Shown here in pieces: positions 23,149 through 23,607 of a DNA stretch of 64,000 nucleotides (position 1 is the first letter of the stretch; each line of letters starts with the position of its first letter). This DNA is from Escherichia phage vB_Eco_ZCEC15. The DNA lies in sequence record PQ871103.1; one strand, 5' to 3'. The notes under the pieces are model-generated. The model was given only the letters and a program-made list of their open reading frames with translations. It was not told where the DNA came from and did no database searches. Made by a program: the position numbers and the translations under genes.

Positions 23149-23607
23149 TTATTTTAAATCATCTGCCCAATCGAGTTTAAGAGGCTCTTTGTATTCACGG
23201 TCAAGTACAACCGGAATTTGTACATCACCGCTAAATGATAAGGGCCCAACATTATAAGACAATGTTATATGCGGTGTGTAATCATCAAAATCGTGTGTAG
23301 CACCTAGTGCCCGCGCATACATGTGTCGACAGCGCAGATATTCAGAATCTAGCACAAGTACAAGAGTCGATCCATCTTGTGTTTTCCATACTTCTAAATG
23401 TCCAGAAGAAGCTACTTCAAAACTTCCACTCGATGGAACATATGGAACATTTACTCTTGAATAACATATAGTCGAATGAATTTTTTCTCTAGGAACTGGA
23501 TTAGGAACACGTAAAGAGCGCTGGAGTTCTTCCAGCGCGTCAAGTGTTAATTCTGAAAACTTAGCTGCTACATAAAGACCCGTTGAAAAGTCTTTAAATT
23601 CCATCAT
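23149..23607 (-). CDS. 57B: gene 57B product; 2H-phosphoesterase-like (Acb1-type anti-CBASS nuclease)
   Basis: 152 aa; two H-x-T motifs (KIHSTI and TPHITL) typical of 2H phosphoesterases; position upstream of 57A as in T4. Confidence 0.8.

Follow-up and report, generated by a model that had tools for sequence, protein, structure and literature searches.

The window analysed here is a stretch of 64,000 nucleotides from Escherichia phage vB_Eco_ZCEC15 (record PQ871103.1), and the locus under study lies in a run of genes that all share the minus strand and follow one another as gene 1, 57A, 57B, Ip5, and Ip6. Gene 1 (23834..24559, minus) codes for a dNMP kinase, an assignment based on phrog_139 (1.8e-65) and on synteny with T4. 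It is followed by gene 57A (23604..23834, minus), which encodes a tail fiber chaperone of 76 aa (phrog_1002, 2.4e-27) and occupies the same position as T4 57A. The coding sequence of gene 57B, also called acb1, extends over 23149..23607 (minus) and, as read from the list of open reading frames and from the sequence itself, runs from ATG to TAA and specifies 152 aa plus the stop. This reading frame is real, intact, and of full length, and is interrupted by neither a stop nor a frameshift. Further in the 3′ direction, an Ip5-type internal head protein of 85 aa (22818..23075, minus; phrog_3499, 1.2e-49) and an Ip6-type internal virion protein of 77 aa, counted from its MKTYQEFIAE start (22508..22741, minus; phrog_8111, 1.2e-52), are encoded, both of which carry these names (Ip5 and Ip6) in the record of phage JB75.

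The location of gene 57B between 57A and the ip locus, on the same strand as gene 1, is that of the 57B locus in Tevenvirinae. The stop codon of 57A and the start codon of 57B share an ATGA overlap (23604..23607, minus), where the strand reads ...GATGAAGAATGATGGAATTT in agreement with the coordinates of both reading frames, and this arrangement suggests that the two genes may be translationally coupled. A previous sequence-only reading of this DNA had placed 57B directly upstream of 57A. The two genes are indeed adjacent, but the description of their order applies to plus-strand coordinates only, since in the direction of transcription 57B lies immediately downstream (3′) of 57A.

The product of gene 57B is identical to T4 gp57B (NP_049750.1) at all 152 of its 152 residues. 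At the DNA level, seven nucleotides differ from T4 57B; each of these changes is synonymous, a pattern that speaks for purifying selection on a functioning protein. When compared with Pfam, the protein matched family PF23474 (Anti-CBASS protein Acb1) with 202.7 bits and an E-value of 2.7e-60, far above the gathering score of 27 bits that serves as the cut-off of this family, and the match is of full length, with residues 9-150 of the protein covering positions 1-144 of the 144 in the profile. The same protein family is represented in the PDB by the Acb1 of Erwinia phage FBB1 (7T26/7T27), to which the 57B product aligned with an E-value of 4.2e-62 and 96 identical columns out of 142 (approximately 68%). 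NCBIfam, on the other hand, yielded no model for either Acb1 or Acb2. Taken together, it is almost certain that the reading frame represents acb1 (gene 57B in T4), carried here by a Tequatrovirus, and that it encodes a small metal-independent 2H phosphoesterase, as the sequence-only reading had proposed when it called 57B an Acb1 ortholog. Both the gene and its location were known before, and the finding is correct and ordinary.

A tblastn search with the 57B product matched 1485 phage records, 445 of them at an identity of at least 99%, and the remaining matches extend to identities as low as 31%, in phages infecting Klebsiella, Acinetobacter, Aeromonas, Vibrio, and Pseudomonas. As for annotation, RefSeq (T4, YUEEL01, and others) and phrog_755 label the gene "RNA ligase", and many GenBank records list it as "hypothetical protein".

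The two H-x-T/S motifs that had been noticed in the 152-aa protein can be read directly from the sequence. The first comprises I43-H44-S45-T46 (23470..23481, minus; codons ATT CAT TCG ACT), contains the catalytic residues H44 and T46, and lies exactly where the sequence-only reading had put it. The second comprises P112-H113-I114-T115 (23263..23274, minus; codons CCG CAT ATA ACA) with the catalytic residues H113 and T115; here the motif was correctly recognized, but its position had been given as ~113-116, whereas it begins one residue earlier and occupies residues 112-115. These are the only two HxT/S motifs in the protein, which contains five histidines in total (residues 44, 70, 95, 105, and 113). 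In the alignments, IHST pairs with "lHtTi" of 7T26 and "wHvTv" of 9Q2G, and PHIT pairs with "pHiTl" and "aHlTl" of the same two entries, respectively. The complete catalytic tetrad H44/T46/H113/T115 is therefore present at the published positions, as are the base-stacking residues Y12, W74, F107, and W147 and the adenine-reading E141. The counterpart of the C-terminal lid, codons 145-152 including W147 (23152..23175, minus), is identical in sequence to T4. By homology to 7T26 over residues 9-149, the protein is predicted to adopt the compact 2H phosphoesterase fold with its C-terminal lid (145-152).

The function of the T4 protein has been well documented. When infected lysate was fractionated with its cGAMP-degrading activity as the guide, that activity was traced to T4 57B (Hobbs et al. 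2022, Nature 605:522, PMC9117128), after which NP_049750.1 was purified and named Acb1 and its function was shown both biochemically and genetically (PMC9117128). In structures of FBB1 Acb1, which display a 2H phosphoesterase fold, the HxT/HxT tetrad of H44, T46, H113, and T115 lies under the scissile phosphate (PMC9117128). Furthermore, Y12, W74, F107, and W147 stack on the bases, E141 reads the N6 of adenine, and residues 145-152 form an ordered lid over the bound cyclic nucleotide, from which W147 makes its stacking contact. The pocket in the crystal structure of Acb1 is sized for cyclic di- and trinucleotides, and the T4 enzyme hydrolyses adenosine-containing cyclic di- and trinucleotides (3′3′-cGAMP, cUA, cAAA), whereas cGG and cA4 are not hydrolysed. 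A T4 Acb1 variant with the substitutions H44A/H113A served as the catalytically dead control (PMC9117128). The histidines that had been flagged in the present protein are the very residues mutated in that variant, and the alignment thus places both of them at catalytic positions. In addition, a T4 strain lacking acb1 was challenged on CBASS-carrying hosts (PMC9117128), and in a transposon screen 57B/acb1 was dispensable on K-12 and depleted on a CBASS-expressing host, so that the gene is conditionally required.

How much the motif pair itself contributes to this assignment can be judged from chance expectations. At least two HxT/S motifs were observed in 16% of 20,000 shuffles of the 57B product, and also in 11 of the 72 mechanical open reading frames of at least 100 aa in the window (2 of 40 among those of 100-200 aa). 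Since the pair arises in 16% of shuffled sequences, it is weak evidence when taken alone and insufficient for a functional call, and one could argue on these grounds that some small, unrelated protein carries the two motifs by coincidence. The full-length, high-scoring match to the Acb1 profile, the match to solved structures, and the identity to T4 Acb1 leave that explanation with no credence at all. The Acb1 call is made because of the identity to T4 and the family profile and not because of the motif pair by itself. It could also be imagined that this copy of acb1 has decayed or become inactivated. There are precedents for such alleles in close relatives, as acb1-disrupting mutations occur naturally in some Tevenvirinae, such as Bas43, which escape Panoptes through the loss of Acb1, and have been acquired by Bas35 mutants selected as escapers from Panoptes. 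At the sequence level, however, this idea is refuted by a reading frame of full length whose product matches the active T4 enzyme at every residue, and of the explanations that retain any probability it is the most improbable.

The remaining alternative, that the 57B product is a 2′-5′ RNA ligase or a LigT-type RNA repair enzyme whose targets are RNA ends (for instance, in the repair of tRNAs) and not immune signals, is only slightly less remote and must be considered very improbable. It draws on the "RNA ligase" label carried by RefSeq T4, YUEEL01, and phrog_755, on a weak similarity to the Pfam family 2_5_RNA_ligase2 (E-value of 0.11, 13 bits), and on the phage tRNA cluster located approximately 2 kb from gene 57B. 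This 2′-5′ RNA ligase family is the only Pfam match of the protein besides PF23474 and lies below the threshold. Membership in the LigT/2′-5′ RNA ligase family (PF13563) was rejected, as the partial match reaches 13 bits against a cut-off of 27 bits, compared with 202.7 bits for the Acb1 model. The label itself is older than the functional work and is a legacy of the similarity within the 2H superfamily. Moreover, the identical T4 protein was isolated as an activity that degrades cGAMP, its pocket fits cyclic di- and trinucleotides, and ligase activity is unreported in the literature on T4 57B/Acb1 that was considered. The designation "RNA ligase" for gene 57B is thus outdated. The sequence holds no evidence against reading the gene as acb1.

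Assuming that the cyclic-nucleotide hydrolysis and the in vivo anti-CBASS protection of T4 Acb1 carry over to its identical counterpart, as we infer here, the following course of events may be proposed. Based on the literature on the same T4 polypeptide, the protein would bind adenosine-containing cyclic di- and trinucleotide signals of CBASS and cleave them 3′ of adenosine, with the H44/T46/H113/T115 tetrad providing acid-base catalysis. The reaction would proceed through a cyclic phosphate intermediate and yield linear molecules such as GpAp. Once deprived of its signal, the CBASS effector would stay inactive, and the phage could escape abortive infection and complete its infection cycle.

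Regarding expression, transcriptome compilations assign T4 57B/acb1 to the middle/late class. A T4 middle-promoter-like site, composed of a MotA box AATGCTTCA, 11 nt, and TATAAT (24585..24610, minus), was found by pattern search just upstream of gene 1, and a T4 late-promoter-like TATAAATA (24190..24197, minus) lies within gene 1 and upstream of 57A/57B; both sites are to be read as motif matches. Gene 1 is likely the first gene of a 1-57A-57B transcription unit. The predicted MotA-box and TATAAATA sites fit the middle/late expression reported for T4, and gene 57B may be co-transcribed with genes 1 and 57A from these middle and late promoter-like sites, with the ATGA overlap possibly coupling its translation to that of 57A. 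A generic sigma-70 scan of positions 22400-24800 returned 12 promoters compared with 9.0 +/- 3.4 in shuffled sequences, which is not above chance. A terminator scan of the same region gave one site compared with 1.2 in shuffles, and this sole terminator-like site is located inside gene 1. No intrinsic terminator was found 3′ of acb1, where a hairpin at 23097-23126 is present without a T-run after it.

This hairpin is part of a cassette that joins acb1 to the internal-protein genes. The junction, in which the end of acb1 (..DLK*) passes into the start of Ip5 (23066..23160, minus; 92% mean column identity in the alignment), contains a promoter-like TTTACA-17-TACTAT, the hairpin, a ribosome-binding site, and an "MKT" start. 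The last four codons of acb1 and its stop (the GAT TTA AAA TAA region) are also the start of this cassette. It was observed that the cassette of approximately 90 nt is a direct repeat, the second copy of which is found ahead of Ip6 (22732-22830, minus). Both acb1 and Ip5 end in ..DLK-stop, and each copy of the repeat starts within the final codons of the gene ahead of it. The promoter-like matches within the two copies are located at 23135..23107 and 22804..22776. The hairpin of the Ip5 copy (23097-23126, minus) has a predicted energy of -17.4 kcal/mol and a z-score of -3.56. In the hairpin of the Ip6 copy (22767-22799, minus; z-score of -3.76), the arms AUAGGGU/ACCCUAU replace the outer GAUGAGGU/ACCUCAUC and still pair. 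Because the arms differ yet retain their pairing, selection on the stem is suggested. The cassette hairpin is not an intrinsic terminator, since no U-run follows on its 3′ side.

Ip5 and Ip6 occupy the place that the anti-restriction gene ipI holds in T4, adjoining acb1. No blastn match to T4 was found for positions 22488-23040 of the window, and no Pfam family was found for either Ip5 or Ip6. The N-terminus of both proteins follows the pattern MKT(Y/F)(Q/K)EF, which is typical of capsid-targeted internal proteins. In T4, the sequence ahead of ipI agrees with the Ip5 copy of the cassette at all but one aligned position, and the JB75 record is 99.6% identical over the acb1 region. The repeat looks like a cassette boundary for the exchange of internal-protein genes. 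One may go further and speculate that the cassette is a recombination and expression module by which anti-restriction Ip genes are swapped next to acb1, so that acb1-ip would be an anti-defence island open to exchange, although we regard this extended reading as rather doubtful. For T-even phages, a modular organisation of the ip loci was reported in the 1990s, and the notion of an exchangeable ip cassette is probably not new. The setting of T4 acb1 has been noted in the literature as an anti-defence island, and this setting is kept here with a different Ip cargo.

The window as a whole is derived from a Tequatrovirus. The identity to Escherichia phage YUEEL01 amounts to 99.8% over positions 22800-24600, and a blastn comparison showed collinearity with T4 from ~51990 on, interrupted by mosaic gaps and at identities of 84-96%, including 96.2% over window positions 23041-29402. 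At window positions ~29397-29402, approximately 560 bp of T4 (80218-80774 of the T4 record) are without a counterpart, and the flanking blocks join directly. The T4 stretch missing near 29400 extends from within segC to the start of 5.4; it takes in the whole of 5.3 as well as the greater part of segC, which codes for a homing endonuclease. In another part of the window, denV (13921..14337) directly abuts the lysozyme gene e (14397..14891), and about 1.1 kb of T4 with ipII and ipIII is missing. For window positions 3348-3861, 4860-5841, 6000-6601, and 9141-9705, blastn found nothing similar in the corresponding part of T4; these four stretches represent the neighbourhoods of nrdC.10/nrdC.11, mobD, mobD.1, and tk/tk.1-tk.2. 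The unmatched stretches between 3348 and 9705 suggest that T4 genes, among them the greater part of the homing endonuclease gene mobD, were replaced in a mosaic fashion or lost.

A tRNA cluster is found at 19613-20968 (minus) and consists of eight genes (Arg, Met, Thr, Ser, Pro, Gly, Leu, and Gln); YUEEL01, the closest relative by the acb1 region, is annotated with 11 tRNAs. The tRNA with the CAT anticodon was called Met by ARAGORN and is listed as tRNA-Ile in the T4 annotation, and it is probably a lysidine-modified Ile tRNA. Between the tRNA cluster and a trna.2-like gene, a 174-aa reading frame (21055..21579, minus) belongs to phrog_2290 of unknown function; neither a Pfam family for its product nor a blastn match of this stretch to T4 was found. 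The window furthermore encodes an ortholog of Acb2 (vs.4; 12061..12324, minus), which is identical to its T4 counterpart at 86 of 88 residues and matches PF24729 with 3.7e-20. Both known anti-CBASS genes of T4 are thus present in the window, approximately 11 kb apart.

A phage with an intact acb1 and the Acb2 sponge in the same window would be expected to resist many CBASS systems. Panoptes reportedly restricts phages expressing Acb1 or Acb2, and the phage would also be expected to be exposed to guard systems of the Panoptes type. The importance of the present finding lies mainly in annotation, where its practical outcome is the relabelling of the gene in near-identical phages.

The closest known system is T4 Acb1, with which the gene described here shares an identical protein, gene 1 and 57A as 5′ neighbours, the coding strand, the ATGA junction with 57A, and the same intergenic promoter/hairpin cassette 3′ of acb1. 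The two loci differ in that ipI lies 3′ of acb1 in T4 (order 1-57A-57B-ipI), whereas Ip5 and Ip6 are found here, in that 57A encodes 80 aa in T4 and 76 aa here, and in the seven synonymous changes within acb1. FBB1 Acb1, solved in the apo form (7T26) and with a 3′3′-cGAMP analogue (7T27), is approximately 68% identical over residues 9-149, and a single gap of one residue interrupts the alignment. The aligned parts include both HxT motifs, the stacking aromatics, and the C-terminal lid region, and FBB1 Acb1 provides the structural basis for the mechanism, although it stems from another phage and host genus, differs in about one third of its residues, and was deposited as a chain without the first eight residues. 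A more remote relative is 9Q2G (165 aa), deposited as "Anti-CBASS protein Acb1", in which both His motifs align with H44 and H113. It is, however, longer and matches with an E-value of 0.004 and 20 bits, and its companion entry 9Q2Y has Ala in place of the first His.

The 2H phosphoesterase superfamily carries out metal-independent transesterification chemistry, and the two H-x-T/S motifs as well as the 2H phosphoesterase fold are shared with its LigT/2′-5′ RNA ligase branch (PF13563). The 57B product is set apart from that branch by its score (13 versus 27 bits) and by the substrate of Acb1, which is a cyclic oligonucleotide immune signal and not an RNA end. Acb2 (T4 Vs.4), which is encoded in the same window, serves the same purpose as Acb1, namely the neutralisation of CBASS signals, but in contrast to Acb1 it sequesters the signal without hydrolysis and has an unrelated fold (PF24729, Acb2/Tad1 hairpin domain).
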